IMG/VR virus record: IMGVR_UViG_3300044996_000468
Span: 58,627 to 78,626 of that record
Reading direction: 5' to 3' (one strand)
DNA length: 20,000 nucleotides
DNA from: an uncultured virus (IMG/VR IMGVR_UViG_3300044996_000468)
Lineage: Duplodnaviria > Heunggongvirae > Uroviricota > Caudoviricetes
Shown: piece after piece, positions 1 through 16,839 of the stretch
Layout of the letters: each line of letters opens with the position of its first letter
How positions within the stretch are numbered: the stretch's first letter is position 1
The notes under the pieces: model-generated
What the model was told of the DNA's origin: nothing
Seen by the model: only the letters and a program-made list of their open reading frames with translations
Databases searched by the model: none
Position numbers and translations under genes: made by a program

Positions 1-207
1 GCTTACGAGGTCGTGATCGTGAGTGAAGGTGGTTACGAGAATTTCAAAATGCAGGTGAGGAACGAGTGGGTCGTGGATCATTGCAACGCGATGTTGTGCG
101 TGTTCGACGGTTCACCCGGCGGAACGGCAAACACCGTCAACTACGCTGACCGCGTTCGCCGTGACAAGATCCGTATCAACCCTCGGGACTTTCAGGCGGC
201 CGTGTGA
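1..207 (+). CDS. C-terminal part of a SLOG-superfamily (YspA/DUF1273-like) protein, 5' truncated by the window edge
   Basis: Frame is open from base 1. Motifs KMQVRNEWVVDHC, VFDGSPGGTANTVNYA and IRINP resemble the YspA/DUF1273 C-terminus (RN..MVD.S...WDG..GGT..TV.YA). Confidence 0.7.
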   Translation, partial: AYEVVIVSEGGYENFKMQVRNEWVVDHCNAMLCVFDGSPGGTANTVNYADRVRRDKIRINPRDFQAAV

Positions 208-349
208 GGGTCGCGCGATCGAACCAAACGCAGACGTACGAACCAACGTCAGTGACCTTGGCATTCGAAGGCTGGAGCTACGACACATGACGACGTTCTT
301 AATCGGCCTTGCTGCGTTCTCGTCGGTGTTCTTGGGCACTTTTTACGAT

Positions 350-385
350 GTTGCGATCAACTTTGATCGTGACGTGGATAGAAAT
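350..385 (+). repeat. Solitary CRISPR repeat of the same family as the 10262-13735 array
   Basis: GTTGCGATC-AACTTT-GATCGTGAC-GTGGATAGAAAT has the same 9+6+9+12 layout as the array repeats. The stem is fully paired when two G-U pairs are allowed. Confidence 0.85.
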
Positions 386-427
386 CAGACCATCAACGTC
401 ACACATGGACGACATGCAGGTGTATAA

Positions 428-961
428 ATGAGTCGCGAAGACGACGACAAAGGCGAAATCGAAATCGGTGCCGTGTTCCCGGGCGGGACGCTCGAAGAAG
501 CGCAAGCCTTCGTGCAGCTCCACCTGGCGAACGGCGCCAAGTGTCCTGCCTGTGGACAATTCGCCAAGCTCTATCGCAGAAAATTGAATGCCACGATGGC
601 CTACGCGCTCGTGCTGATCCACCAGTTCTTCAAGAAGAACCCGCAACACGCCTGGATCCACGTCGCGTCGTTCTTGGTCAACACGCGTCGCGATAGCTCG
701 GTGGCAGGTGGTGATGTTGTCAAGCTCCGACACTGGGGCTTGATCGAGCGCGTCGACGGCGAGCGCGGCGATGGCAGTGACCGTGTCGGTCGGTACACGA
801 TCACGGAGCTGGGACGACGGTTCGTCGAGGGGGCGATCGCCGTTCCGCGCTACGCATATCTGTTCAATCAGATGCTCATGCGGTTGAGTGAAGAGAAGAC
901 GACGATCCAGGAGGCGTTAGGCGATCGATTCTCGTACGAAGAGCTACTGCAAGGAGCCTGA
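428..961 (+). CDS. Phage hypothetical protein, CxxC plus probable winged-helix DNA-binding fold
   Basis: 177-aa ORF with GC3-rich codons. Contains CPACGQ and a wHTH-like wing segment (HWGLIE...GRYTITELGRRFV). Confidence 0.7.
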   Translation: MSREDDDKGEIEIGAVFPGGTLEEAQAFVQLHLANGAKCPACGQFAKLYRRKLNATMAYALVLIHQFFKKNPQHAWIHVASFLVNTRRDSSVAGGDVVKLRHWGLIERVDGERGDGSDRVGRYTITELGRRFVEGAIAVPRYAYLFNQMLMRLSEEKTTIQEALGDRFSYEELLQGA

Positions 962-963
962 AG

Positions 964-1254
964 ATGAACTGCACCTGCGATCAGCGCGGCGACTTCTGCC
1001 CCGAGCATCCCACCTGCGCGTGCGGTTGCGAGCGGCACGCGCACCGCGGCAACGCCGAGTGCATCGCCGGCTCGATGAACTGCCACGGTTGTAACGCCTA
1101 CCGCCCGGCGCGGCTCAAACGCTTCCACGAGCTGTACGACCACGACCTTGAAGACATCACGTTGGATGCCCTCAAGCTCGCCTACAGAGACCTGCGCGCG
1201 CACCACATCGAAGAAACCACGGCGTTGTGGCATAGGATCACCAATCCGAAGTGA
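964..1254 (+). CDS. Small Cys/His-rich hypothetical protein
   Basis: Starts 2 nt after the previous stop. Cys-rich N-terminal half and GC3-rich codons. Confidence 0.6.
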   Translation: MNCTCDQRGDFCPEHPTCACGCERHAHRGNAECIAGSMNCHGCNAYRPARLKRFHELYDHDLEDITLDALKLAYRDLRAHHIEETTALWHRITNPK

Positions 1255-1508
1255 AGACCTACGAGACCAAGCCGTCTGAGCCGCCGACAACATGTCCCGT
1301 CCCGCGATGTGGCTACAAGCGCGTCTGGAAGTATTTCAAGTACGACCGCGTACGCGGTGGTCGTAAGCCGCCGCGTGACGGTTGGCGGGCGCACTGTGCA
1401 GCCTGTGCGGTGCTCACCGAGCTACGCCATCATAAACGCCGCGCCGAAGTACTCCAAGAACGCTGGTCGGCGATGGTAGAACCGCCGAAGCCTGTGCCGC
1501 GTCGATAG
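1251..1508 (+). CDS. Small basic hypothetical protein, possible zinc finger
   Basis: GTGA start/stop overlap with the upstream gene. Contains CPVPRC...CAAC. Confidence 0.5.
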   Translation: MKTYETKPSEPPTTCPVPRCGYKRVWKYFKYDRVRGGRKPPRDGWRAHCAACAVLTELRHHKRRAEVLQERWSAMVEPPKPVPRR

Positions 1509-1829
1509 TTCTCGTTCTGACGAAAAGCCTCGACGACGGTGAAGACCGACGACGGTGAGGACTTGCGGAATTAGTCTTGCTTTGGTGCTTGCTTTAGTGA
1601 GTGCCTTTGTGCTGTGCTATAGCTCTCGACTTCTAGGGGAACCATGGGCACCAAAATCACGGCACTTGCCAAGGCGAAAAAGATCGGCATGTACGAAGAC
1701 GCCAAGAGGGCGATCTTCGTCAACGTCACCGAAATCGACATCGAGCGCGCGACATGCTTCGCGCCCGACCAGTGCGCAATGGCCAAGGCTGCTTGCCGCG
1801 CAATTCCGAATGCGTTGAGGGCCTTCTTC

Positions 1830-3020
1830 CATGCTTATCCGGTTAACACCCCAAACGTGATTTAGACACATGAGTACCGTACTGACACATCAAGTCACGA
1901 TCTGGATGGCAGGCGACAAGTTGTGCTGAACCTCGCGAACTGGCGTAAGTACCAGCACCTGTTTGTCCCTCCGTCCGATCGCCCGTGCATCGCTGGAGTC
2001 AGCGGTGGTTCGACGAGTGGTGTGATGGCCGCGCTGCTCTCGGCTGCCGTGCTCATGTCGTTCCAGAACACGGGCAAAGAGCACGCGCTGACTTACGAAT
2101 TCCTGGAGGCGCTCGCAGATGCTATCGGTCGCGAGATTGTCTGGTTGGAGTACCGCCCGCCCGCCTCGCGCGGGGCCCCGCCTGCGGCGGCACGTTTTGC
2201 AGTCGTAACACCGCGAACCGCTGATCGTAGCGGCGGACCGTTCGAGATGATGATGATGGACGCGATCAACGCATATCGCGCAGCCATCGGTAAGGGGCCG
2301 ATCGCGCCGTGGTGGCGCTCGCGCATCTGCACGACGTACATGAAGACGCGACTCGCGCGCCGCTACGTGGAGTCGCTTGGGTGGAACGGCCACGATGAAC
2401 TAGTGGGGCTTCGTGCCGACGAGCCCGATCGTGTGGCCAAACTCCGCGTGGGCGTCCCCAAGCGAATCGGTCGCCATGCGCCGCTTAGCGTCGCTGGTTT
2501 CACGGCCAACGATGTAGCTGCGTTCTGGGGTGAGCAGTCGTTCAGGCTCAACCTGCCGCCTCACCTCGGCAACTGCACTGGATGCTTTCTAAAGGACCAG
2601 GCCGACCAAAGCCGCGCGCTCGACCAGAATGGCGACGTCGATTACTGGGCGGGTATGCAGGAGCGGCATCCGGGATTCGGCGGCAAGAATCACCCCGGCT
2701 ATCGTCGGCTCGCAGCCGAGGCGCCATCGCGTTACGCGATTGAGGCGGCACTGTTGGCCGGGCGAACGCCCGATAACGAGAACGGTATGGAGTCTCGTCG
2801 GTTCAAGCTTGTTGTCATCCAGGAGCGCAAGCGGCTAGCCGGACAGGTGGCGCCGTTCTCGTGTGCGTGCGAGGGCTCCGACGCACTAGCGCAGATGGAC
2901 GACGACGAAGAGAACGCATACATCGCATCACTACCAAGTGAGGACGCGGCATGAAGAGTGCCAATTCACAATCTAACAAGGACGGTCAGACCTGTTATGG
3001 GTGCCAACCGGATAAGCATG
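1830..3020. mobile_element. Non-autonomous TIR element (mobile-cassette-like) carrying a PAPS-reductase-family gene, no transposase
   Basis: Left end CATGCTTATCCGGTTAACACCC (1830-1851) and reverse complement of the right end CATGCTTATCCGGTTGGCACCC (2999-3020) match at 20/22. An 8-bp direct repeat CCTTCTTC lies at 1822-1829 and 3021-3028. Confidence 0.9.
1923..2954 (+). CDS. Phosphoadenosine phosphosulfate (PAPS) reductase-family / PP-loop protein
   Basis: PP-loop-like GVSGGSTSGVM, plus FQNTGKEH, RICTTYMK, VGLRADEPDR and GNCTGCFLK, as seen in phage PAPS-reductase-like proteins. Confidence 0.8.
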   Translation: MLNLANWRKYQHLFVPPSDRPCIAGVSGGSTSGVMAALLSAAVLMSFQNTGKEHALTYEFLEALADAIGREIVWLEYRPPASRGAPPAAARFAVVTPRTADRSGGPFEMMMMDAINAYRAAIGKGPIAPWWRSRICTTYMKTRLARRYVESLGWNGHDELVGLRADEPDRVAKLRVGVPKRIGRHAPLSVAGFTANDVAAFWGEQSFRLNLPPHLGNCTGCFLKDQADQSRALDQNGDVDYWAGMQERHPGFGGKNHPGYRRLAAEAPSRYAIEAALLAGRTPDNENGMESRRFKLVVIQERKRLAGQVAPFSCACEGSDALAQMDDDEENAYIASLPSEDAA

Positions 3021-3330
3021 CCTTCTTCTACGAGAATGCTGTGTACATCGCATACTACGACACGAAGACAAAGAAGAAGAGGACCTTGCGCTTCATTCCT
3101 TCACCGGAAGCGCGGAAGAACATTCATACCTTCGACACGACCGGGAAGTTCTCTCCAGGACGCTACCGGCTGGACGCACCCAAGGGTTCGGACACGCTGG
3201 CCAGCATTCGTGAGCGGAGTCGACGTCGTCCTGGTCGACATCCTCCGAGCAACAAGCCGGTGATCAAGCGCGCTGTCAAGGCTACCGTCAAAGGGCGTCT
3301 GCAGTACGCCTACGCCTACTAGCCGAGACC

Positions 3331-3792
3331 GTGAAGACCGACGACGAGATCAGTCACGCGATCGCGCGAGCACACAGCGACGAAGCCGTGTTCGCTGACT
3401 ACCTGCGCGGCTTTGGTCTCGTCGTCGATACACTCTCCCGCGGTTTTCGAAAGTCGCTCGACGACATCGCGCAGTACGCCCACGACGTCGACCTGCAAGT
3501 CGCCGGCTACGCTTGCCAGTACAAGCATCGCGGCAACGCGCGGCTCGCGTACATCGTCAGGAACTACTGGGGGCCGTTCCTCGACGAGAAGCAGAAGGCC
3601 GATCGCACGCCGGTCGACTTCTACATCCTCGACTTCACCGACGCGACAGTGATCGCACCGTATGCACCGGATCTGTGGAAAGTCCAGACCAACGACGATC
3701 GATCGGACCGAGCACGCGCGAAACAGTTCTACATCGTGAACATCCGCGACTGCGTCCAGCTGCAAGCCTGGATCGACTGGCTCAGAAGCTGA
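3331..3792 (+). CDS. Hypothetical protein, possible PD-(D/E)xK nuclease fold
   Basis: 153-aa ORF with GC3-rich codons. E in an N-terminal helix and DVDL...QYK spacing resemble the PD-(D/E)xK motif; the fold assignment is tentative. Confidence 0.6.
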   Translation: MKTDDEISHAIARAHSDEAVFADYLRGFGLVVDTLSRGFRKSLDDIAQYAHDVDLQVAGYACQYKHRGNARLAYIVRNYWGPFLDEKQKADRTPVDFYILDFTDATVIAPYAPDLWKVQTNDDRSDRARAKQFYIVNIRDCVQLQAWIDWLRS

Positions 3793-3828
3793 CGTCGAGT
3801 GATCTCGCCGCGGTTCGTTCGCATCATA

Positions 3829-3925
3829 GGCTTGACTTGTCAGGTACATCTGCGAAACGTTCAGTTCCAGTAGAGAACGGCTTGACTCGTCGAAGTCGTG
3901 CGTGAGAGGTTCAGTTCGAGTAGAG
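3829..3925 (+). promoter_or_regulatory. Tandem imperfect 50-bp duplication upstream of cas3 (putative promoter/operator)
   Basis: GGCTTGACTYGTC at 3829 and 3879, and GTTCAGTTCSAGTAGAG at 3859 and 3909. The sequence between the blocks differs. Each unit contains a TTGACT -35-like hexamer. Confidence 0.5.
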
Positions 3926-3945
3926 CGCGACAATTTAGGGAGCAC

Positions 3946-6051
3946 ATGAAGAGCACGAGGCTAGGGCCTCGGTCACTCACTGCCCGTAGGGTTCGGGACG
4001 TTGAGCGACCACTGGTCGAGGACATTCTTGCGACCGCAGATCGTGGAGCCGCTCTCGCCGTAGCGTTCGGTGCGCAGGAAACTCGCGCTGTCTGTCTTTG
4101 GTCGGATATCGGCAAGGCATCCGAGTCCTGGCAGATCCAGCAACGCGGGTCGAAGTACGGCCTACGTATTAACCATGTTGGATTAGGCGTTTGGCACACC
4201 TTACGCGTTCCCGGCATCCCGTCCATGCAACGATTGGCAATCGCTGTCGCGATCGCCGGTCACCATGGTGGTCTCCCAGACGCAAGTTACCTACCTGCAC
4301 TGGCAGATGAGAGCGCACCGCTTCGAGAGGCGCTGATCGATCTTCCCGACGAGATCACTGCCCTTCCCGTAATGCGACAACGTCGGTTCGCAAACGCGAC
4401 GCATTTGTTCATGTTCACGCAGATGATCGCGTCGGCACACATCGACGCCGACTGGCAAAACGCGGCGGAATGGGAGCGAGAAGTCTGTGGTGCGCCCATC
4501 ACACGACCTTCGTATCCGAGCATCGAACAGCTCTACCGACAGTTGGAGAGCGTGTGCAGTGACACACGGCTCGATCGGAGCGATCTCCGTACTGCGTTCC
4601 GTTTGCACTATCTAAGTGCCGCTGAACGTGTTCCGGGGTTCTATTCGTTCTCAGCCCCTCTCGGTGCGTTCAACGTCGAAGCCTTGGCGCTGTACGGGCT
4701 GGCACACGCGCGACGCAACGCACGAGAAAGGGTCATCCTTGTCTGTTCGACGCAGATGATGTTCGAAGAGTGCACAGACAAGCTTCGTGCCTCTCTCGGA
4801 GACGCATTCGCAGAGCCCGCCGCGTTCGACGTCCAAAGTTGTGGGTTCAGTCCTCGTGTCGAGACCTGGGACGCTCCTGTCGTCGTTACCGCGCTTCGAG
4901 ATTTCTTAGGGCTCCTCTTTGACAATCGTCCAGCGTCTCTGCGACGTTTCCATCACCTCGCACGCGCAGTGGTCGTTGTCGTCGACGCACAACAGATCCC
5001 GTTGCCCGTGCGCACGTTGACCCGCGAAGCGTTACAAGTACTCGTTGATCATTTCCACGCTTCGGTGTCGCTCGTGTCGGCGGTCCCCTACGGAGTCGCG
5101 GAGGACGATCGACCAGAGTTGTTGGGGCCAAAGGACGCCTTCAACACGGTCTACGGAGAGATTCAGACCACATGGCCCGATCATCACGAACCGTTACCCT
5201 CCGCCGTACAGATCGCACACGAGATCGCCGAGCACGCTGAGTGTTTGACGGTTCTCCAAGATGCATCCAGATTGCGTGAGGTAGCACAAGCGATGAGGGC
5301 GTACGTCCCCGACGTCCAGGTCACTGCCGTGTCGTCTCGGATGTGTGCTGAACATCGTCGTGCGGTGATACGTAACCTTCGTGGAGGGTGTATCATCGCC
5401 GACGAAATCGGGAGTGCTCTCGCGAGGACGTTCAATACGGTCCTGTGTGAGATGACCGAACTGCCGACCATGGCCGCTGCTGCCTGTCGTGCGTTTGGTG
5501 ACGGTCAGCGGCGTGCAAACTTCAAAGTTCTTCTCTCGACGAGACGTACGGCTGGAGCTGTCGTCACGCACCTCATGTGGCGAGGTCGTTCAACACTGGC
5601 GTTTCAGGATCCCGCAACCTGGCGCGAGTACTTTCTGGACTTGCGCTCCGGGGTTCTACCAAACGATCGGCAGTGGGCCGACGCTCGTCAGGCGGACGTC
5701 GAGTGTCTTCGGTTCCGAACACTGGCCGCGGAAATGTTGCGTGTCGGCAAACGCTGCGCGGCACCTGTGAGCCTTGGGTTGGGAGAAGCCAGCCTAGTCC
5801 CGGTCGTCGTTCCTATGCCACTGCCGAGGGGTGGCTCCAGACCGGCGACCAAAGCCTTGATCGACAGGCTTCGTGCAGACGGTTCAAGTCAAGAAATTCT
5901 ACGTCGACTCATGAGCTACGTCGTGTGGATCTCCGTCGACGAGCGCACACAACTTCTTCGCGACGGTCATGCTGTCTGGGTCAGCGAGGCCGTGGTCTAT
6001 GTGATCAACGAGCTTCTGTACGATGAATTTGGGCTGAAGCCACTAGCCTAG
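3946..6051 (+). CDS. cas3: Type I-C Cas3 (HD plus SF2 helicase), predicted catalytically inactive
   Basis: Cas3 scaffold motifs DIGK, AIAGHHGGLPD, IDADW, ETWDAPVVVT, LFDNRP..LRRFHHLARAVVV and C-terminal LRRLMSY...YDEFGL. ATG 3946 follows an AGGGAG RBS. Lies upstream of cas5c. Confidence 0.9.
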   Translation: MKSTRLGPRSLTARRVRDVERPLVEDILATADRGAALAVAFGAQETRAVCLWSDIGKASESWQIQQRGSKYGLRINHVGLGVWHTLRVPGIPSMQRLAIAVAIAGHHGGLPDASYLPALADESAPLREALIDLPDEITALPVMRQRRFANATHLFMFTQMIASAHIDADWQNAAEWEREVCGAPITRPSYPSIEQLYRQLESVCSDTRLDRSDLRTAFRLHYLSAAERVPGFYSFSAPLGAFNVEALALYGLAHARRNARERVILVCSTQMMFEECTDKLRASLGDAFAEPAAFDVQSCGFSPRVETWDAPVVVTALRDFLGLLFDNRPASLRRFHHLARAVVVVVDAQQIPLPVRTLTREALQVLVDHFHASVSLVSAVPYGVAEDDRPELLGPKDAFNTVYGEIQTTWPDHHEPLPSAVQIAHEIAEHAECLTVLQDASRLREVAQAMRAYVPDVQVTAVSSRMCAEHRRAVIRNLRGGCIIADEIGSALARTFNTVLCEMTELPTMAAAACRAFGDGQRRANFKVLLSTRRTAGAVVTHLMWRGRSTLAFQDPATWREYFLDLRSGVLPNDRQWADARQADVECLRFRTLAAEMLRVGKRCAAPVSLGLGEASLVPVVVPMPLPRGGSRPATKALIDRLRADGSSQEILRRLMSYVVWISVDERTQLLRDGHAVWVSEAVVYVINELLYDEFGLKPLA

Positions 6052-6105
6052 GTGGCTGGTCTTCCGAGCAGGTTCGCAGGGAAAGTAGGCTAGGTACGCC
6101 TTAAA

Positions 6106-6118
6106 AATCAAGGACTTA
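6106..6118 (+). promoter_or_regulatory. IHF consensus site in the cas3-cas5 intergenic region
   Basis: AATCAAGGACTTA matches WATCAANNNNTTR exactly, within a locally AT-rich patch. Confidence 0.45.
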
Positions 6119-6178
6119 CGAGTTTACTCTCGACAGAACGGACGCCTCGCGCGTCGTAGACAACAACAGGGAGAGCAC

Positions 6179-6814
6179 ATGAAACGGAGCAGTGTACTTG
6201 CACTACGCGCAATGGGGCGGCGCGCGTGTTGGACGAACCATCTTTGTCGTGTCGAACGACAGACATACGACATTCCTACGCCGTCTGGCGCTGTAGGGGT
6301 GTTCGAAGCTGTCAATTGGCATCCCGGAATGCATTGGGAGCTGCACAAAATCTGGGTACTCAAGCCCATTCAGCACTTTTCACTGCGCACGAACGAGGTG
6401 AAGTGTTTCGCAGGCCGCCAGCCAATCAACATCGACAGCAATCGGACGCAGCGCAATACCGTCGGGCTCTACGACGTCGACTACATCTTCGAGGCCAGCT
6501 TCGTACTGGACGCGCGTGCGTCTCACGACGTCGCGACCAACGAAGACATCTTTCGTCGGCGCGTCAAGAACGGTGCCTGCTATCACACGCCGTATCTGGG
6601 GATGCACCCCTTTATCTGTGACGTGATGGCGCCGCCTGCCCAGTATACGCCGATTCGCCTGAGTCGGAGTTTTGGGCGAATGTTGTACGGGTTCGACTAC
6701 ACGAATAAGAAGCCGACGCCGCTCTACTTCGAAGCCTCGATGGAGAACGGTGTCGTGCAGATCCCTTCGCGTGAATACGTTCTTCAGAACCAAGGGATCA
6801 ACCATGTTCCGTGA
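6179..6814 (+). CDS. cas5c: Type I-C Cas5c (Cas5d)
   Basis: Motifs G..ACWT..RVERQTYDIPTPSGA.G.FEA..W.P, VLKPI, RTNEVK, RTQR....LYDVDY, FRRR..G.CYHTPYLG, FGRMLY.FDY and FEA.MENGV..P. Confidence 0.95.
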   Translation: MKRSSVLALRAMGRRACWTNHLCRVERQTYDIPTPSGAVGVFEAVNWHPGMHWELHKIWVLKPIQHFSLRTNEVKCFAGRQPINIDSNRTQRNTVGLYDVDYIFEASFVLDARASHDVATNEDIFRRRVKNGACYHTPYLGMHPFICDVMAPPAQYTPIRLSRSFGRMLYGFDYTNKKPTPLYFEASMENGVVQIPSREYVLQNQGINHVP

Positions 6815-8816
6815 GTTGTACGAATTCGCCCAGCGCAACCGATTAGCAGACCCCGGCTTTCAGAATCGATTCGTCCATTACGAGATCGTCCTCGACGAGA
6901 ACGGTCGATTGATCTCAGGACATCGGATCGACGCAGAAATGCGCGCCCCCATGATGCCGAACAGGGCTGGTACCATCGTCCGTCCACAAGCTTGCATCGA
7001 ATCGGTGCAGTACATCCTTGGGCACGTCCTCGCAAAGCCGGGGGAGGACCCGCACAAGAAGCAAGAGCGTGCAGTGATTCTCTTCCGGGGACACTACGCG
7101 CACGTACACCGTATGGCGGAGGAAACCGGCGATCCCTACGCTCGGGCGTTGGCCAACTTCGTACGAGACGTCGACAATGGTGTCTATGGTCCGCCTCAAC
7201 AGGCCGCCGAACGCTGTTTGGGATGGACATCTGTCGACGAACCGCTTACCGGCAGTGAGTGGTGTGTCTTCGCCGTCAAGGAACCGGATCAGCCGAAGTA
7301 CTACATCCACGATCGGCCGGCGGTCTCACAGTGGCTTCGCGCGAACCGGCCCACTGCCGACAGCGACGTTGTTATCACATGCGCTGTGACAGGTCGCCAA
7401 GACAAACTCTGTATGACGTGGAACAAGGTCAAAGGCATTCCTGGTACGCAAGGGTCAACTCTCGTTTCGTACAACCATGCCCCGTGGACTTCCTACGGCT
7501 TCGACCAAGGGGAAAACTCCCATACGGGACGGGACACTGCAGAGGCCATTGTCGAAGGGCTCAACTATCTTCTTCGACCGGTGGAAGTCCCTTACACGCG
7601 GCGGAACTCGAAGACCGAGGAGATCGAGACGCGTGTGCGGATCAAACCGTACGGCGGCGTCTACCCCTTTAGCTTCGGTGCGCCGCAAAAAGGAGCCACA
7701 GTATTCGTTTGTTGGACGGCGGAGAAGGACGTCGAGCTGACGGTTCGTGGCGGTCTCACAGCTCTGTTCTCTGGCGGCGGCGAGGTCGAGACGTTACTCG
7801 ATATCGAACACGCGAGTGAGTCGGCCGTCGAAAAGCTACTTCGGACCGAGACGAACGATCCGCAGATCATCCACGATCTGCTCGCAGTGCATCGCACAGG
7901 TCGTGCGATGCCACAGTTCAACGAGGGCGCTTTTCACGCGTTGTTGCTCTCGGATAATCAACGCGTCGTGCCGCGCAGCACGCTGATCGGTACGATCGGT
8001 GAGCTGCGCGCCAAGATTCAAAAGTACGTCGACGACATGCGGCTGCCGACGGTCAACCGTGTTCCGCCCCTAACCAAGATCTTTGAAGCGCTTCGCGCAC
8101 GTGATCGAGAGCAGTTCACAGCAAGGACCACCGACAACATGCTGCGCTGCGTACTCGAAGGCGCCCCCGTGCCAGCTGAACTCGCAGCCGCCGCGCTCAA
8201 GCGATGCAACACCTATCCTTCCAATAAGGATGCGAGGAAACGGTGGAAGCGCCTGCTTCCGATTCGGATCAGCATCCTGAAACTCGATCTCGTCAGGAAA
8301 GGACTTGAACCACACGTGCAGAAAAATCCGTTCGACAACCTCGAAGAGACACACATCGCGAACGTACTCGGTTACGTCATGGCCGAGTGTAATCGCGTCC
8401 AACGCTGGGCCCTTGGCCCAGTGCAGCGTTCCAGCCTGTCACGCACGGACATCGTCCAGGCGCCACACAACGTACTCGCGGCGATTCTGACGAAGTACGA
8501 GAAGCACACCTCCAGTGCCAAGATCAGGAAACAATCCGGTCCGTCCAAGGAACGAATGGGACGTCTGATGACGCGACTCGGCGACGAGATGCTACCGGTA
8601 CGACTCGGTGCCGAAGAGCAGACTCGATTCTGGATTGGCTACTACACCTACGAGAGGTGGATGAAGGAGCACTTGGCGGCGAAGGCGGCGGCGAAGGCAG
8701 CTGCTCAGGCCGCTCAGGCCGCTCAGGCCGCTCAGGCTGCTCAGGCCGCTCAGGCCGACGAGGACACGGACACCGATGAAGACGTAGACGTAGACACCGA
8801 CGACATGTCCCAGTAA
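6804..8816 (+). CDS. cas8c: Type I-C large subunit Cas8c (Csd1) with an Ala/Gln repeat and acidic C-terminal tail
   Basis: Start set at ATG 6804 (MFRELYEFA), which overlaps the cas5c end. Motifs CAVTG, KVKGIPG...LVSYN...SYGFDQGEN...LNYLL, and a Cas11-like C-terminus LGYVMA...EEQTRFWIGYY. Confidence 0.92.
   Translation: MFRELYEFAQRNRLADPGFQNRFVHYEIVLDENGRLISGHRIDAEMRAPMMPNRAGTIVRPQACIESVQYILGHVLAKPGEDPHKKQERAVILFRGHYAHVHRMAEETGDPYARALANFVRDVDNGVYGPPQQAAERCLGWTSVDEPLTGSEWCVFAVKEPDQPKYYIHDRPAVSQWLRANRPTADSDVVITCAVTGRQDKLCMTWNKVKGIPGTQGSTLVSYNHAPWTSYGFDQGENSHTGRDTAEAIVEGLNYLLRPVEVPYTRRNSKTEEIETRVRIKPYGGVYPFSFGAPQKGATVFVCWTAEKDVELTVRGGLTALFSGGGEVETLLDIEHASESAVEKLLRTETNDPQIIHDLLAVHRTGRAMPQFNEGAFHALLLSDNQRVVPRSTLIGTIGELRAKIQKYVDDMRLPTVNRVPPLTKIFEALRARDREQFTARTTDNMLRCVLEGAPVPAELAAAALKRCNTYPSNKDARKRWKRLLPIRISILKLDLVRKGLEPHVQKNPFDNLEETHIANVLGYVMAECNRVQRWALGPVQRSSLSRTDIVQAPHNVLAAILTKYEKHTSSAKIRKQSGPSKERMGRLMTRLGDEMLPVRLGAEEQTRFWIGYYTYERWMKEHLAAKAAAKAAAQAAQAAQAAQAAQAAQADEDTDTDEDVDVDTDDMSQ
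8316..8816 (+). CDS. cas11: Putative internally translated Cas11c
   Basis: In-frame GTG at 8316 follows AGGAAAGGA (8295-8303) and lies just before the LG(R/Y)xxA helix, where I-C Cas11 normally starts. Confidence 0.5.
   Translation: MQKNPFDNLEETHIANVLGYVMAECNRVQRWALGPVQRSSLSRTDIVQAPHNVLAAILTKYEKHTSSAKIRKQSGPSKERMGRLMTRLGDEMLPVRLGAEEQTRFWIGYYTYERWMKEHLAAKAAAKAAAQAAQAAQAAQAAQAAQADEDTDTDEDVDVDTDDMSQ
8703..8756 (+). repeat. 6 x 9-bp tandem repeat (GCTCAGGCY) encoding (AQA)n in the cas8c tail
   Basis: Read directly from the sequence. Confidence 0.95.
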
Positions 8817-8900
8817 CTCACAAACGTCGACGACGATGTCGTCGTCGTAGATACAAATACGCACGCAACACAGAGCAGTAGAGAGAAGGGAAAGAGACCA

Positions 8901-10082
<1,182 letters not shown>

Positions 10083-10261
10083 CAACGAGCGCCTTGGTGC
10101 GAGGCGAGTTACCAGAACCGCTCGCATGATCTAACACCGCGCAAGTCCTGACGTAACACGGTTCTCTGATAACCGAATAGCAGCACAAAAGAAGCGTTTA
10201 TGGGCGTCGCTCGCTAGGCATCACCTAACGAACAGCGCCAGTTGTCTTTTCAGAAAGTGTT
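10083..10261 (+). promoter_or_regulatory. Putative CRISPR leader
   Basis: About 180 bp, non-coding and lower in GC, between the cas7 stop and the first repeat. The GAAAC 3' end of the repeats implies + strand transcription. Confidence 0.7.
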
Positions 10262-13200
10262 GTCGTGATCGAGATCGATCACGGCGTGGGTAGAAACTTG
10301 AGGTTGGGCCTCATCCACAGGCACCGCGGTCGGGGGTCGTGATCGAGATCGATCACGGCGTGGGTAGAAACAACGATCGCTACTTCGATGGCCGAACCGT
10401 CGGCGTGTTTCCTCGCGCTTGATACGTGATCGCGTCGCGATCGACAACGATCACGACGCGGATAGAAACACGCGCAACCTCCGCGTGATGCCGTCCGGCT
10501 CCCTGGGTCGCGATCGACAACGATCACGACGCGGATAGAAACGCGGCGCCCTGGACGACCTTCACCGTACGGATGACGCGGGTCGCGATCGACAACGATC
10601 ACGACCGTGGATAGAAACCTCGCAGACGCCGAGTACACATACGCGTCGTGCGCGGTCGCGATCAATCAATCTAAATCGCGACGTGGATAGAAACACCGCG
10701 GGTGGTAGCGACGGCGACGGTCCAGCACCGGTCGCGATCGATTCAGATCGCGGCGCGGATAGAAACACGCTGGACGACGGGCCTACGACGACAAGGGCAA
10801 TCATGGGTAGAAACCAGATTTCAACCACCTTGCGTGCGACAACCTGCGTCGGCAGTCGTGATCGATCAGGATCGCGACGTGGATAGAAACAACTGCAGGG
10901 AGTTGCCGTCGGGCAATTTGGTCGATCAGGATCGCGATGTGGGTAGAAACACCACGCGCGCCGCCAGCCAGCGCTCGATTTCCGCGCGGTCGTGATCGAT
11001 CAGGATCGCGACGTGGGTAGAAACTGTTCGGCGACCGCATGTGCGACGGCCTCGGGTGGTAGTCGTGATCGATCAGGATCGCGACGTGGGTAGAAACGTC
11101 GACGACGTGGCCCGGCGCGTGATCCCCGTCGACGTCGCGATCGACCAAGATTGCGACGTGGGGTCGATCACCAGCCCCGTAATCAACCGCGATCACGGTG
11201 TGGATAGAAACGTGAGCGGCGAAAAGCCGCTACTGAAGGAAGGCGTCGTGGGTCGCGCCGCGGATAAAAACAGTTCGAGTGGTGTCGTTGGTGGTGTAGC
11301 GTGCTGGGTGTCGTCGTGATCGATCGAGATCACGCCGTGGATAGAAACCTGTGCGGTCGCGCTCGCCCTACGCGAGCCCCAAGGTTGCGCAGGTACGTGT
11401 AAGTCGTGATTCGATCAGGATCGCGACGTGGGTAGAAATTACGTCGACGCAGAGACCCGCAAGCTGGTGCGCAGCGCCGTCGTGATCGATCGCGATCATG
11501 ACTCCGCTCGCGCCGAGGTTAAACCAGTACGCGACCCAGATCTCGTTGCCAACGACCGTCGTGAATCGATCAGGATCGCGACGTGGATAAAAACGCCGTG
11601 TACGGCGTCTCGCCGATCCACTCCCACGTCGTCGTGATCGATCGCGATCGCAGACGAGGATAGAAACAGCGACGGGTAGTTGATCGAACCGACGGCGCCG
11701 CTCAGTCGCGATCGATCGCGGCGCGGCGCGGCGTGGATAGAAACAAGCGGGTCCGGCTCGCGCTGCACGTGTGGATGGAGGTCGTGATCGGCGGCGGTCA
11801 CGGCACGGATAGAAACTCGGCCTCGCTCCCCAGCGACGACTGGTACGCCACCTGTCGCGATCGACAACGATCACGACGCGGATAGAAACACCGGCGACGT
11901 GAAGATGCCGACGCTGAAGAAGCTCCGTCGCGATCGACAACGATCACGACGCGGATAGAAACTGGATGATCTCGTGGCCTTCGTCGGGACGCCACGGTGG
12001 TCGCGATCGACAACGATCACGGCGTGGGTAGAAACGAAAGAAGGGGAGAAGAGTCAGGAAAGCATCCTAACCGTCGCGATCGACAACGATCACGACGCGG
12101 ATAGAAACACACGTACGAGCGCGGTCATGTCCTGCACGAATCGCGATCGACAACGATCACGACGCGGATAGAAACGGCACGGGAGAGCACTTTGAATGGG
12201 AGGGCAAGATCAGTCGCGATCGACGCGCGGGCTCATCAGGTCGTGATCGATCAGGATCGCGATGTGGATAGAAACGGTCGCCGTACCAAGACATCACAGG
12301 CGAGGTCGCGATCGATCTGGATTGCAGCGCGGATAGAAACAGGTTGTACGCCCACCCGGGCGGAATACATTGCTGTAGTCGCGATCGATCGCGACGTGGA
12401 TAGAAACCCGGTCAAACTAGGTCCACCGCACGCCGGGCCGTTGGTCGTGATCGATCTGGATCGCGGCGCGGATAGAAACAAATCCTGAACTGGCGTCACC
12501 TCATTATAGAATACGGCGCGATCGATCTAGATCGCGGCGAGGATAGAAACAGCATGGCTACTTGAGTAGTCGATCTACGCTTATCTCGCGGCGTGGATAA
12601 AAAACGCGATCACCGTTTGGCGAATCACGGAGCACTGCTCATCGTGATCGACTCAGATCACGGCGTGGGTAGAAACAAGGAAATCGTCGCGAGCGATGAA
12701 ACCTCGGGATGTCGTGATCGACTTAGGAATCGTGACGTGGGCAGAAACATCGGCGTGATCGGGACGATCATTGCGAAACTCGTGGCTCTGCATCGCCGGT
12801 GGCGGCGTGTACTTGTCACGATCGATCACAGCGTGGATAGAAACATCTGTACGTACTCGTCAGCGCGAAGCTCCGCGCGGTCGCGATCGACAACGATCAC
12901 GACGCGGATAGAAACGATGCGAGGATATAGCGGAGCCCCGGCACCGAGCGTGTCGTGATCGATCGCGATCACGTGATTGATCAGGATCGCGGCGTGGGTA
13001 GAAACGTCGCGAAGGGCCTCGCGTTCCAGGTGCGTAAGCACGTCGTGATCGATCGCGATCACGGCGAGGATAGAAACAGCGACGGCAAGCTCTACAAGAT
13101 CAGGATCGACGTGGTCGTGATCGATCGCGATCACGGCGAGGATAGAAACCGCTGGACCGAGCGCCGTCGATTTTCAACCGCCCACACGTCGTGATCGACG

Positions 13201-13735
13201 CAGATCACGGCGCGGATAAAAACGGCGCCGTCGCGAACGGAGTCGACTTCTACGGCGAAGGTCGTGATCGTCGTCGTCGTGTTGGATCGCGACGCGGATA
13301 AAAACAAGAACATCCTGTACGGCGAGATCCTGTCCGCAACGTGGATATCATCGGTGGCAGTGTCGTCGTCGAGGAGTTGTCGTGGATCGCGGTGTGGATA
13401 GAAACGCGTCGCGTGGATAGAAACACGAGATCGATCAGGCAGGCGATCTGGATCGTGGCGCGGATAAACGAAAAAAGTGCGTCTTGCCGCGACCGAATGG
13501 GCGGTGACGTCGCGATCGATCTGAATCGCGACGCGGATAGAAACGTCGCGCAGTTCCAACCGGTTGCGCTGAGCGCGATCGCGATCTTGATCAATCGCGA
13601 CGCGATCGTGGATAGAAACCAGAAGTTGAACCGTACTTCGTCGAGATACGTCGCGGCGTGGATAGAAACGCGGCAGTCATCCCGAGGCCGGTCACGACGA
13701 TCGCGATCGATCGAGATCGCGACGTGGATAGAAAC
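10262..13735 (+). CRISPR. Type I-C-like CRISPR array, about 50 highly variable repeat units; consensus GTCGYGATC-N6-GATCRCGRC-GYGGRTAGAAAC (36 nt)
   Basis: Manual count gives about 47 handle-bearing units plus about 3 without a handle. Spacers are mostly 34-40 nt with outliers. Adjacent to cas7c, with GTCG start and GAAAC end as in I-C repeats. Confidence 0.95.
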
Positions 13736-13791
13736 CTCACCAGCTGCCTTCGTGATGCGGGAGTCGTATCAAGATCTATCGGTTGCAATTA

Positions 13792-14127
13792 TCAACGACG
13801 AATGAGGCGCGGGTCTTCGACGAAACTCTCGACGGCGCGGGGGACGAAGCGAACACGACCAAACGCGTAGCCAAGACCAAGCAGCGCGAGCGCACCCGCG
13901 GCGAGCAGTAAGACCGTCGGCGGCTCGAAGAGACCGACCGGCGAGCACTGGAAGTTCTTGAGTGCCGGATCGAACTTGCAGCGGACGGTAACGTTGTCTG
14001 GGATCACAGGCATCACGATCTTTGGGTCGGTGATGACGTTGGGCGTCGCGGCCGGCGTCGTCGCGTCCTGTCCCAGACCGAAGATGTTCGGACGATCGGT
14101 CGTAGATTGAAATTGCACCGCGAGCAT
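13792..14127 (-). CDS. Small protein with C-terminal transmembrane helix and basic tail
   Basis: MLAV...FGLGQ N-terminus, a Cys pair, and hydrophobic VLLLAAGALALLGLGYAFG followed by Arg residues. Confidence 0.7.
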   Translation of the reverse strand: MLAVQFQSTTDRPNIFGLGQDATTPAATPNVITDPKIVMPVIPDNVTVRCKFDPALKNFQCSPVGLFEPPTVLLLAAGALALLGLGYAFGRVRFVPRAVESFVEDPRLIRR

Positions 14128-14211
14128 GCCGGCATTGTACGCGATCGCGCCCGCGATCGATGAACAGTGTAGGGACTACCCTGGGGATTGAAACGGCTCT
14201 AGCCTTGTTGG

Positions 14212-14577
14212 ATGTCAGGTAGCAGGCCGATCTTCGTGTTTGGCAGCAACCTCGCCGGTCGCCATGGGACTGGTGCCGCGCTCGAAGCGCGACAAAAACA
14301 CGGGGCGGTGTATGGCTGCGGCGAAGGACTTTCTGGTTACTCGTACGGGATTCCAACGAAGGATCGGGACCTTAAGTCGCGGACGCTCGACGAGATTCGT
14401 GCTTCTGTCGAGACGTTCCTGGCGTTCGCGCGTGATACGCCCGAAACCACCTACGAGGTCACGCGCGTGGGCTGCGGCCTCGCCGGCTATAAGGACCACC
14501 AGATCGGGCCCATGTTCGCCGAGGCACCGGCCAACTGCATCCTGCCGCTCAACTGGGAGCAGTACAGGCGCACTTGA
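14212..14577 (+). CDS. Conserved phage protein (IFVFGSN...GRHG.GAA family, A1S_2505-like)
   Basis: IFVFGSNLAGRHGTGAA, YG.GEG..G.SYGIPTK, VTRVGCGLAGY and MF...P.NC.LP..W. Confidence 0.8.
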   Translation: MSGSRPIFVFGSNLAGRHGTGAALEARQKHGAVYGCGEGLSGYSYGIPTKDRDLKSRTLDEIRASVETFLAFARDTPETTYEVTRVGCGLAGYKDHQIGPMFAEAPANCILPLNWEQYRRT

Positions 14578-16227: not shown

Positions 16228-16839
16228 ATGCTCGCCGTCACCTACTCGGGTTCTGGATTTGGTCAAGCCGGCTGCCCTGCCGGTCAGCACTCGTTCACGT
16301 TCCCGTGGGGCGTGAACACGTGTGTTGCCGACGACGCCGCACCGCCCGATACGAGCGCGATCTCTGCGGATTCGACGCCAACGTGTGCGGCGGGTCAGCA
16401 TCTCTTCACGTTCCCGTGGGGCGTGAGCACGTGCGTGTCGGACGACGCACCAGCCATCAACGTCAACGCAACGTCGCCCGATCAGACACCACAGTGTCCG
16501 GCGGGTCAGCACCTTTTCACGTTCCCGTGGGGCGTGAGCACGTGCGTGTCGGACGACGCACCAGCCATCAACGTCAACGCAACGTCGCCCGATCAGACAC
16601 CACAGTGTCCGGCGGGTCAGCACCTTTTCACGTTACCGTCGATCGGGCTGCTGCCTCCGGTGATGCAGTGCCAGCCGGATGTCGTACCCTCATCGAGGAA
16701 GTTCTTCGACGTGAAGAACCCGATCATGTGGGCGACGTTCGCGGGTGGTGCGGCCGTCGTCGGCCTCGGTATCTACGCGTTCAGATCACCCAAGCCGACC
16801 ACGGTTGCAGGTCGCCGTCGTCGCCCACGTCGCCGCTGA
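16228..16839 (+). CDS. Membrane-anchored protein with about 3.3 copies of a 37-aa Cys-containing repeat
   Basis: CPAGQHLFTFPWGVSTCVSDD... repeats, then a C-terminal TM segment (IMWATFAGGAAVVGLGIYAF) and an Arg-rich tail. Confidence 0.8.
   Translation: MLAVTYSGSGFGQAGCPAGQHSFTFPWGVNTCVADDAAPPDTSAISADSTPTCAAGQHLFTFPWGVSTCVSDDAPAINVNATSPDQTPQCPAGQHLFTFPWGVSTCVSDDAPAINVNATSPDQTPQCPAGQHLFTLPSIGLLPPVMQCQPDVVPSSRKFFDVKNPIMWATFAGGAAVVGLGIYAFRSPKPTTVAGRRRRPRRR
16273..16632 (+). repeat. 111-bp intragenic tandem repeat
   Basis: GCGGGTCAGCA recurs at 16390, 16501 and 16612. Units 2 and 3 are nearly identical. Confidence 0.9.

Follow-up and report, generated by a model that had tools for sequence, protein, structure and literature searches.

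Viral solitary CRISPR repeat units (SRUs) were described by Camara-Wilpert et al. (2023), in the account given in PMC10651486, as "not associated with cas genes", often lying right behind a promoter and matching the system of the host. In bacteria, as far as reported in bioRxiv 10.1101/2024.12.27.630466, type I-C single-repeat RNAs are cut by Cas5c and loaded into Cascade, and type I-C single-repeat CRISPR RNA (crRNA)-like RNAs (crlRNAs) repress the promoters of genes inserted in cas operons. Cracrs, as presented in bioRxiv 10.1101/2024.10.29.618823, are defined by at least nine matches, proximal to the protospacer-adjacent motif (PAM), to the CreA/CreR spacers of the host, and use host Cas proteins. 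Phage solitary repeats are currently read as decoys or hijacking guides aimed at host CRISPR; in the locus reported here, the phage owns the matching machinery. A solitary type I-C repeat at 350-385 precedes a conserved gene starting at 428 (gene 428) in a stretch of 20,000 nucleotides (the window), which is the terminal 20 kb of the uncultured virus record IMGVR_UViG_3300044996_000468 (about 78.6-78.9 kb). This record agrees at 99.99% identity with part of a 221,422-bp IMG/VR contig, which is rated 100% complete, as well as with a third assembly, and the phage genome, with a GC content of 61%, is taken to be circular and about 221.4 kb long because both ends of that contig join when laid on the record, save 5 bases. 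The + strand of the window carries, in order, phage genes from 428 to 3792, a type I-C interference operon, a leader and a long array (Table 1), the phage being a huge bacteriophage with its own stripped-down CRISPR system.

The element at 350-385 is a genuine, full-length and diverged copy of the repeat of the phage's own array, beyond chance. A covariance model built from 28 array repeats (R1), run unfiltered over the whole record, matched it along model positions 1-36 with 27.7 bits (E=1.4e-4), behind 41 better matches that all belong to the + strand array; the next off-array match was partial (13.5 bits, E=0.21), and the model found no other match within 9.8 kb and no degenerate repeat flanking 350-385. 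A second model (R2), made from 41 array repeats with the solitary copy excluded, gave 33.2 bits (E=7.1e-6 in the 221-kb genome), and one more match of positions 1-36 to an array-only model had E=3.9e-4. The earlier note, made from the letters alone, had described a complete 36-nt repeat at this place, and the sequence reads as it claimed, including the preceding T-rich stretch (located at about 317-345), the 42-nt spacer-sized segment that reaches the ATG at 428, and the solitary standing of the repeat, with no second copy nearby and the array beginning 9.9 kb downstream. When up to three mismatches were allowed across the window, the repeat matched itself alone (one match; 0 of 200 shuffles gave any). 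Its 12-nt 3' segment, GTGGATAGAAAT at 374-385, occurred 43 times with up to two mismatches against 0.71 expected, 40 of these occurrences lying in 10286-13735 and the only exact one being that of the solitary repeat.

The stem is fully pairable, as had also been proposed, with ten pairs, including two G-U pairs, that enclose the loop ACTT, the nine-pair form with the loop AACTTT given before being equally valid. All 10 pairs stand in register with GTGGATAGAAAT, and the hairpin is present in the minimum-energy and the centroid folds; the 111-nt surroundings show no unusual stability (z=-1.24), 23 of 200 shuffles folding equally well, and no Rfam family matches the repeat or the leader. The array has the base of the solitary copy at 32 of the 36 columns. 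Its four private states (T3, T15, T21 and T36), seen in none of the 28 aligned repeats, are all C-to-T changes on the + strand, and those in the stem keep pairing, as U3-G22 and G4-U21 (G-U pairs) and A10-U15. Handle positions 375-384 equal the most common form in the array, where a final T is also seen in one repeat. The array is invariant at C3, G4, A7, T8, T18, C21, G27, G28, T30, A31, A33-35 and C36, and 11 of these 14 columns are kept in the solitary copy, which has T at C3, C21 and C36.

The history of the junction was reconstructed from relatives of gene 428. Its protein has homologs at 78%, 72% and 68% identity, whereas the viral and metagenome collections scanned yielded relatives at 58-65% and, besides these, only near-identical copies of the phage. 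Gene 428 served to retrieve 23 viral and 46 metagenome loci, and 12 among the closest (58-65% identity) were compared gene by gene. A homolog of gene 428 stands at the same place in 12 of these 12 loci, as loci fetched through this gene, and the backbone common to them consists of an upstream gene run ending with the gene that stops at 207 and, downstream, of homologs of 14212, 14615, 14987, 16857 and 17467. Homologs of cas3, cas5c, cas8c and cas7 were found in 0 of the 12 loci; the repeat models gave no match better than E=0.33 in 22 viral loci and, in ten metagenome loci, matched only a copy of the same phage.

In 7 of 11 relatives, the 428 homolog is preceded, at a distance of 2-56 nt, by the end of an open reading frame (ORF) of 238-293 aa. 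In the window, the upstream gene stops at 207, and the frame-3 translation of 210-287 that immediately follows, VARSNQTQTYEPTSVTLAFEGWSYDT (…AFEGWSYDT, then TGA 288-290), resembles the C-terminus …AIEGWRY… of the relatives, the similarity reaching z values of 4.7-11.4 in 7 of the 11 and a score attained by 0 of 300 shuffles; the other four have a different gene at the site, with no similarity to the remnant. In the relative L071, the stop of the preceding gene overlaps the start of the 428 homolog (ATGA), and the window keeps ACATGACGACG at 284-294. Between this region and the ATG at 428 lie about 137 nt that occur in no relative, and this insertion rebuilt the 5' end of gene 428 after the preceding gene was largely deleted. 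Because the relatives have a tight junction and no array, the repeat must have arrived on a short insertion at a deletion scar. The alternative raised by the earlier note, that related genomes would reveal the remnant of a deleted array, is not borne out by the relatives, where the junction is tight and neither an array nor degenerate repeats were found. The insert supplies the Shine-Dalgarno (SD)-like AGGTG, at positions 33-37 after the repeat, and the start codon now used by gene 428. Its flank does not resemble the array leader, whose score is equalled by 124 of 500 shuffles, and the inserted segment does not resemble the rest of the genome; against GenBank phages, 208-427 gave only 27-33-nt matches (E about 9) and window positions 1-4000 gave no match. 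Such an arrival is equally compatible with a stranded relic and with a recruited element.

The same relatives also place the CRISPR system itself. From the end of the 428 homolog to the 14212 homolog, the six relatives having both contain 0.24-3.3 kb of unrelated cargo, compared to 13.25 kb here, and therefore the CRISPR island (964 to about 14200) fills a variable cargo site, or hot spot. Besides the CRISPR-Cas island, the interval 961-14212 contains seven other genes, and backbone gene 428 separates the solitary repeat from the island.

Regarding the machinery, Cas5c scores above the NCBIfam cut-off (112.4 vs 85 bits) and matches solved Cas5c pre-crRNA endonucleases with E about 1e-29. Family searches for Cas1, Cas2 and Cas4 returned nothing from the 221-kb genome, the control genomes giving matches. 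The array comprises 49 + strand units, kept after removal of minus-strand and overlapping partial matches, with 41 + strand matches at E<=1e-5 and usual spacers of 36-37 nt. Its repeats vary strongly: the 28 best-aligned include 20 distinct sequences, with a mean pairwise distance of 7.1 of 36 positions and 14 invariant columns, which suggests a processing enzyme tolerant of variation, and stem pairing holds in 92.2% of 180 cells, compared to 10-43% when the partner column is slid. Some array repeats are truncated or merged, and Tandem Repeats Finder misses the array. The spacers have no match beyond 13-19 nt in the phage's own genome and the array none in GenBank phages, and thus no PAM can be derived from them. 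The repeat family is carried by none of the 49 viral loci found with a Cas7 alignment, a Cas3 query returned only the phage itself, and a pattern scan of 185,579 species genomes gave 15 single seeded matches with no second copy and no array, in line with chance. Its assignment to type I-C is supported by the canonical type I-C array of the viral contig L127, which shares the 5' GTCGCG, the palindromic stem and the 3' GTGGAT-GAAAC frame; the L127 repeats are 32-33 nt long, nearly invariant in 15 copies and end in ATTGAAAC, whereas those of this phage have 36 nt, are highly variable and end in ATAGAAAC (ATAGAAAT in the solitary copy).

On the observed homology, kept structure, position and strand, insertion history and presence of cas5c, cas7 and cas8c, a tentative preference is built, falling somewhat short of an even chance, for a repeat that is transcribed with the gene 428 leader and that the phage's own Cas5c cleaves or binds; what we infer are its transcription, its cleavage, the loading of proteins and any regulatory effect. 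A search of 1-4000 for sigma-70-like sites found none (0.9 expected), the + strand between 207 and 428 has no terminator-like site, and all neighbouring genes lie on the + strand, as does the repeat, and so read-through from upstream is the simplest expectation. The repeat is, most likely, transcribed as part of the gene 428 leader, and the read-through transcript would hold its hairpin and handle. Cleavage by Cas5c would be expected because the 10-pair hairpin and 11-nt handle are kept and Cas5c resembles the solved endonucleases; the cut would fall between 374 and 375, a position taken from type I-C processing as reported in bioRxiv 10.1101/2024.12.27.630466, and would leave the 11-nt handle 375-385, separating the dead upstream region from the 428 mRNA. 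The 428 leader would then start with a crRNA handle, offering Cas5c and Cas7 a place to assemble, and the ribosome-binding site at leader positions 33-37 would come within reach of a Cas7 filament of the length that suits 36-37-nt spacers. Gene 428 would thereby be translated according to how much free Cas protein is present. The fuller version, in which the phage recruited its own repeat to the leader, Cas5c cuts a polycistronic mRNA, Cascade assembles over the ribosome-binding site and gene 428, perhaps with the cas block, senses free Cas, is unlikely as a whole. Among the readings proposed by the earlier note (guide, decoy or leader processing site), it is the last that is compatible with all observations.

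Several points speak against cleavage or binding by Cas5c. The solitary copy differs from the nearest array repeat at 9 of 36 positions, compared to 1-7 for array repeats and theirs, and its GC content of 0.42 is below that of every array repeat (0.50-0.64), a distance and composition that look like drift. Three of the four private states fall on the array-invariant columns C3, C21 and C36 and make two adjacent G-U pairs at the stem base, which is invariant in the array; Cas5c recognition may therefore be impaired. The repeat also adjoins a pseudogene remnant, a place tolerant of junk, and is held by three assemblies that are 99.99% identical, the other fetched relatives lacking both repeat and cas genes. 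A literature search did not find a natural CRISPR repeat serving as a cis processing site in an mRNA leader. On the side of Cas5c action stands a simulation of five random changes, in which the stem and the 11 handle bases were both kept in 0.14% of cases with any substitution, 1.9% with transitions only and 4.3% with GC-to-AT transitions only, but little weight is given to it because a copy lacking stem or handle would have escaped notice.

An inert relic is nearly as probable as the preferred reading: the repeat would have been stranded by recombination, or be a collapsed short repeat-spacer stretch, drifting to A+T without consequence, with the open 46-codon frame and the kept hairpin explained by chance plus ascertainment. 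The pseudogene scar beside it, the private changes on array-invariant columns, the lowest GC content and its rank as the most distant member of the family are what such a relic would display, as are the missing promoter-like site and target and a flank unlike the array leader, and two or three weaker repeat-like fragments (E 1.5e-3 to 0.023) suggest scattered debris. However, every stem change keeps pairing, the handle is intact, and the repeat lies on the sense strand directly 5' of a conserved gene. Moreover, a phage that makes Cas5c probably cuts any transcribed hairpin-plus-handle, and the relic would thus need either no transcription or lost recognition.

A trans-acting crRNA-like guide (of the crlRNA, CreR or Cracr type), whose handle and 42-nt tail would send the phage's own Cascade to a site of the host or a competitor and repress it, is improbable. 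In its favour, single-repeat type I-C crlRNAs of 48-50 nt exist, for which, as reported in bioRxiv 10.1101/2024.12.27.630466, about 16 matching bases beside TTC suffice, viral crlRNAs are known (bioRxiv 10.1101/2024.10.29.618823) and this phage has Cascade genes. The earlier note had suggested searching for partial matches of 386-427 beside TTC, and under type I-style scoring, with every sixth base ignored and TTC required, agreement at 13 or more of 15 seed positions occurs nowhere in the 221-kb phage genome. With 8 of 10 positions asked for, 7 sites beside TTC were obtained (2.5 in shuffles), all of them away from the cas locus and its vicinity, and matches of the tail over 12, 20 or 36 nt equal those of shuffled controls. 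In IMG/VR, the tail pattern with N at every sixth base returned this phage only, and no foreign match. The best site in 251 kb of relatives agrees at 14 of the first 16 bases, positions 1 and 3 being mismatched, and has GAG at the place of the PAM; relatives hold no counterpart of the tail, and the idea of a guide unit aimed at them is unsupported. A guide role thus lacks support, the tail having no match above chance in the phage genome, in IMG/VR or among the relatives. Furthermore, the tail doubles as leader and ribosome-binding site of gene 428 and is thus constrained otherwise, and folding gave no 3' hairpin like that of known type I-C crlRNAs.

It is very improbable that the ORF at 287-427 encodes a real small membrane protein, the likeness to the repeat being incidental. 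This 46-codon frame, inside which the solitary repeat lies in frame, was called by public gene callers (a cluster of one member on four contigs), has an SD-like GGAG at 274-277, 9 nt before its ATG, and a hydrophobic N-terminus, and its stop abuts the ATG at 428; ATG 287 also appears to be the ancestral start of gene 428, as seen by the ATGA overlap of L071 and the kept ACATGACGACG. Against it, among 1.84 billion representatives no homolog was found besides the ORF itself and a 29%-identity stretch in a 4677-aa protein, its GC content at third codon positions (GC3) of 0.53 is atypical (10 of the 11 neighbours compared have 0.62-0.85), an open frame of this kind arises in 10% of shuffles, and a coding role leaves the full-length, in-register match to the array repeat (E=7e-6) unexplained. 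The frame is probably not a conserved gene, and translation initiated at 287 could continue across the repeat and begin anew at 428.

The decoy also proposed before, an RNA anti-CRISPR (Racr) against a type I-C system of the host or a rival phage, can scarcely be credited: phage solitary repeats can act in this way, including the type I-C RacrIC1 (as reported in PMC10651486), but this phage carries the array family and the matching Cas proteins itself and would titrate, or poison, its own system, no promoter-like site lies directly upstream, 0 arrays of the repeat family occur in 185,579 species representatives, and the repeat unit runs into gene 428, with no stand-alone small RNA gene.

A scan for further solitary repeats, as the earlier note had proposed, yielded three weaker full-length R2 matches far from the array. 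These lie at G001 91656-91686 (+; E=1.5e-3), between convergent genes, at 95822-95852 (+; E=9.7e-3), over codons 3-14 of an ORF with a good SD, and at 122366-122405 (-; E=0.023), near the end of a minus-strand ORF, and may be scattered repeat debris. A regulon of hairpin-plus-handle elements before genes was considered and is not claimed: all seven off-array motif matches have an in-register hairpin, but the background rate of such hairpins is 33% (1002 of 3000) and the criteria were chosen after the matches were known. One of the seven resembles a decayed array end, one lies over a ribosome-binding site and one between convergent genes. At G001 108043-108076 and 165124-165159 (+), AGGGTTGAAAT and AAAGGATAGAAAT come in register after strong hairpins, with start codons 14 nt and 3 nt further on, the second overlapping a likely ribosome-binding site; neither scores with the repeat models, and chance is possible at the 33% background rate. 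A second remnant repeat at 432-466 was dropped, as this segment encodes the acidic N-terminus common to 428 homologs and gave no model match. In IMG/VR, a pattern specific to the solitary copy returned the phage itself and one stemless match in another contig, taken as chance. An exact 21-nt copy of the 3' half of the commonest repeat, without the 5' stem half, stands at a gene boundary on the minus strand of L041 (929-952; G002), a phage record of 59 kb that has terminal repeats; in a collection this large, it may be a chance match.

The coordinates of the features are collected in Table 1. Past the array, the first decayed end is …GTAGATTGAAAT at 14102-14113 and the second a hairpin with GGGGATTGAAAC at 14160-14194; they terminate in ATTGAAAT and ATTGAAAC, the latter being also the ending of the canonical L127 repeat. 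The second decayed end sits 17 nt 5' of ATG 14212, a backbone gene, and is missing upstream of the 14212 homolog in all six relatives inspected, and a minus-strand ORF (13792-14127) occupies the region between the array and these ends. Cas7 (Csd2) is circularly permuted relative to canonical Csd2, its residues 57-251 corresponding to Csd2 97-292 and 286-369 to Csd2 4-97, an arrangement common to eight database proteins at 42-47% identity, ordinary Csd2 being about 33% identical; its N-terminus has a Gly/Asn repeat from a CAACGG run at 8981-9024. Between the solitary repeat and cas3, the gene at 1923-2954 is PAPS-reductase-like (phrog_424, E=7e-31) with a weak SspD-like N-terminus (E=3e-8), and may be a DNA-modification gene. 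At 16383-16639, Tandem Repeats Finder detected a 111-bp tandem repeat (2.3 copies, 97% matches), near which two assemblies align only as two offset, overlapping pieces, possibly reflecting a difference in copy number.

Table 1. Features of the solitary repeat locus and of the CRISPR-Cas system in the window.
Feature	Position	Strand	Basis
3' remnant (26 codons + TGA) of the gene preceding the 428 homolog; pseudogene scar	210-290	+	Similarity to relatives
46-codon ORF through the insert; ATG 287, stop TAA 425-427 abutting ATG 428	287-427	+	Public gene callers
T-rich 5' part of the insert	291-349	+	Absent from relatives' junctions
Solitary type I-C repeat; stem 350-359/364-373, loop 360-363, 3' segment 374-385	350-385	+	Model match, fold
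42-nt spacer-position segment, leader of gene 428; SD-like AGGTG 418-422	386-427	+	Sequence
Gene 428, conserved backbone gene (phrog_2693, function unknown)	428-961	+	PHROG E=8.6e-37; 33 homologs
Type I-C interference genes	3898-10082	+	Pfam, NCBIfam, PADLOC
cas3	3898-6051	+	Pfam, NCBIfam, PADLOC; Cas3 with HD domain
cas5c	6179-6814	+	Pfam, NCBIfam, PADLOC
cas8c	6672-8816 (start probably later)	+	Pfam, NCBIfam, PADLOC
cas7	8901-10082	+	Pfam, NCBIfam, PADLOC
Putative array leader	10083-10261 (179 nt)	+	cas7 stop to first repeat
CRISPR array, repeats strongly varying; source family of the solitary copy	10262-13735	+	Model matches
Two decayed repeat-like ends past the array	14078-14194	+	Motif matches

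CRISPR RNA-processing proteins have so far been placed on ordinary mRNA mainly as an engineering use. If the solitary repeat is cut or bound, it would be a natural case, and if Cas proteins assemble on the leader, it would represent a cis-acting, RNA-level use of type I CRISPR machinery without a DNA target. If it is a relic, the locus documents how repeats become stranded, through an insertion of about 137 nt at a deletion scar that lies across a backbone gene from the 13-kb CRISPR island in the cargo hot spot of this lineage.

Compared to the viral SRUs and Racr of Camara-Wilpert et al. (as portrayed in PMC10651486), the element is likewise a single phage repeat unit with hairpin and handle and without a neighbouring repeat, and it matches a known repeat, here that of the phage's own array, with no other or partial repeats beside it. 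Unlike SRUs, it matches the array and cas operon of the phage itself, on the same strand, with cas3 3.5 kb downstream, has no predicted promoter (no sigma-70-like site), overlaps a called ORF and runs into a gene. SRUFinder, as described there, masks ORFs called with at least 80% confidence, and with respect to the intergenic position of SRUs, this repeat lies within the called 46-codon ORF, which has no homologs and an atypical GC3. The crlRNAs of bioRxiv 10.1101/2024.12.27.630466 and the CreR/CreA of bioRxiv 10.1101/2023.03.10.532045, as far as these reports describe them, resemble it as one unit near a type I-C operon with non-cas genes between, and with type I-C crlRNAs it would share the 11-nt handle expected after Cas5c cleavage. 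Type I-C crlRNAs, however, match a nearby promoter over about 16 bp flanked by a PAM and carry a 3' hairpin, neither of which was found here, where the seed search of the 221-kb genome did not exceed shuffles; in addition, the present unit stands upstream, rather than downstream, of the neighbouring genes and on a phage. Cracrs, in the account of bioRxiv 10.1101/2024.10.29.618823, are similar as a phage-borne repeat with a guide-like tail, from which this phage differs in having its own Cascade.

The adaptation-less type I-C variants of huge phages (Al-Shayeb et al. 2020, as outlined in PMC7162821) share with this system Cas5d-type processing and the lack of Cas6, Cas1, Cas2 and Cas4; in that variant, a helicase replaces Cas3 and the arrays are compact (median 6 repeats), whereas here Cas3 has an HD domain and the array about 49 units, and the portion of PMC7162821 dealing with these variants makes no mention of an off-array repeat. 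The element is a further member of the solitary-repeat class, one for which no target of the crlRNA kind was found in the 221-kb genome and which departs from SRUs in its association with cas genes and in having no predicted promoter, and it is unusual in that it matches the phage's own system, stands in an mRNA leader and has a traceable insertion history.

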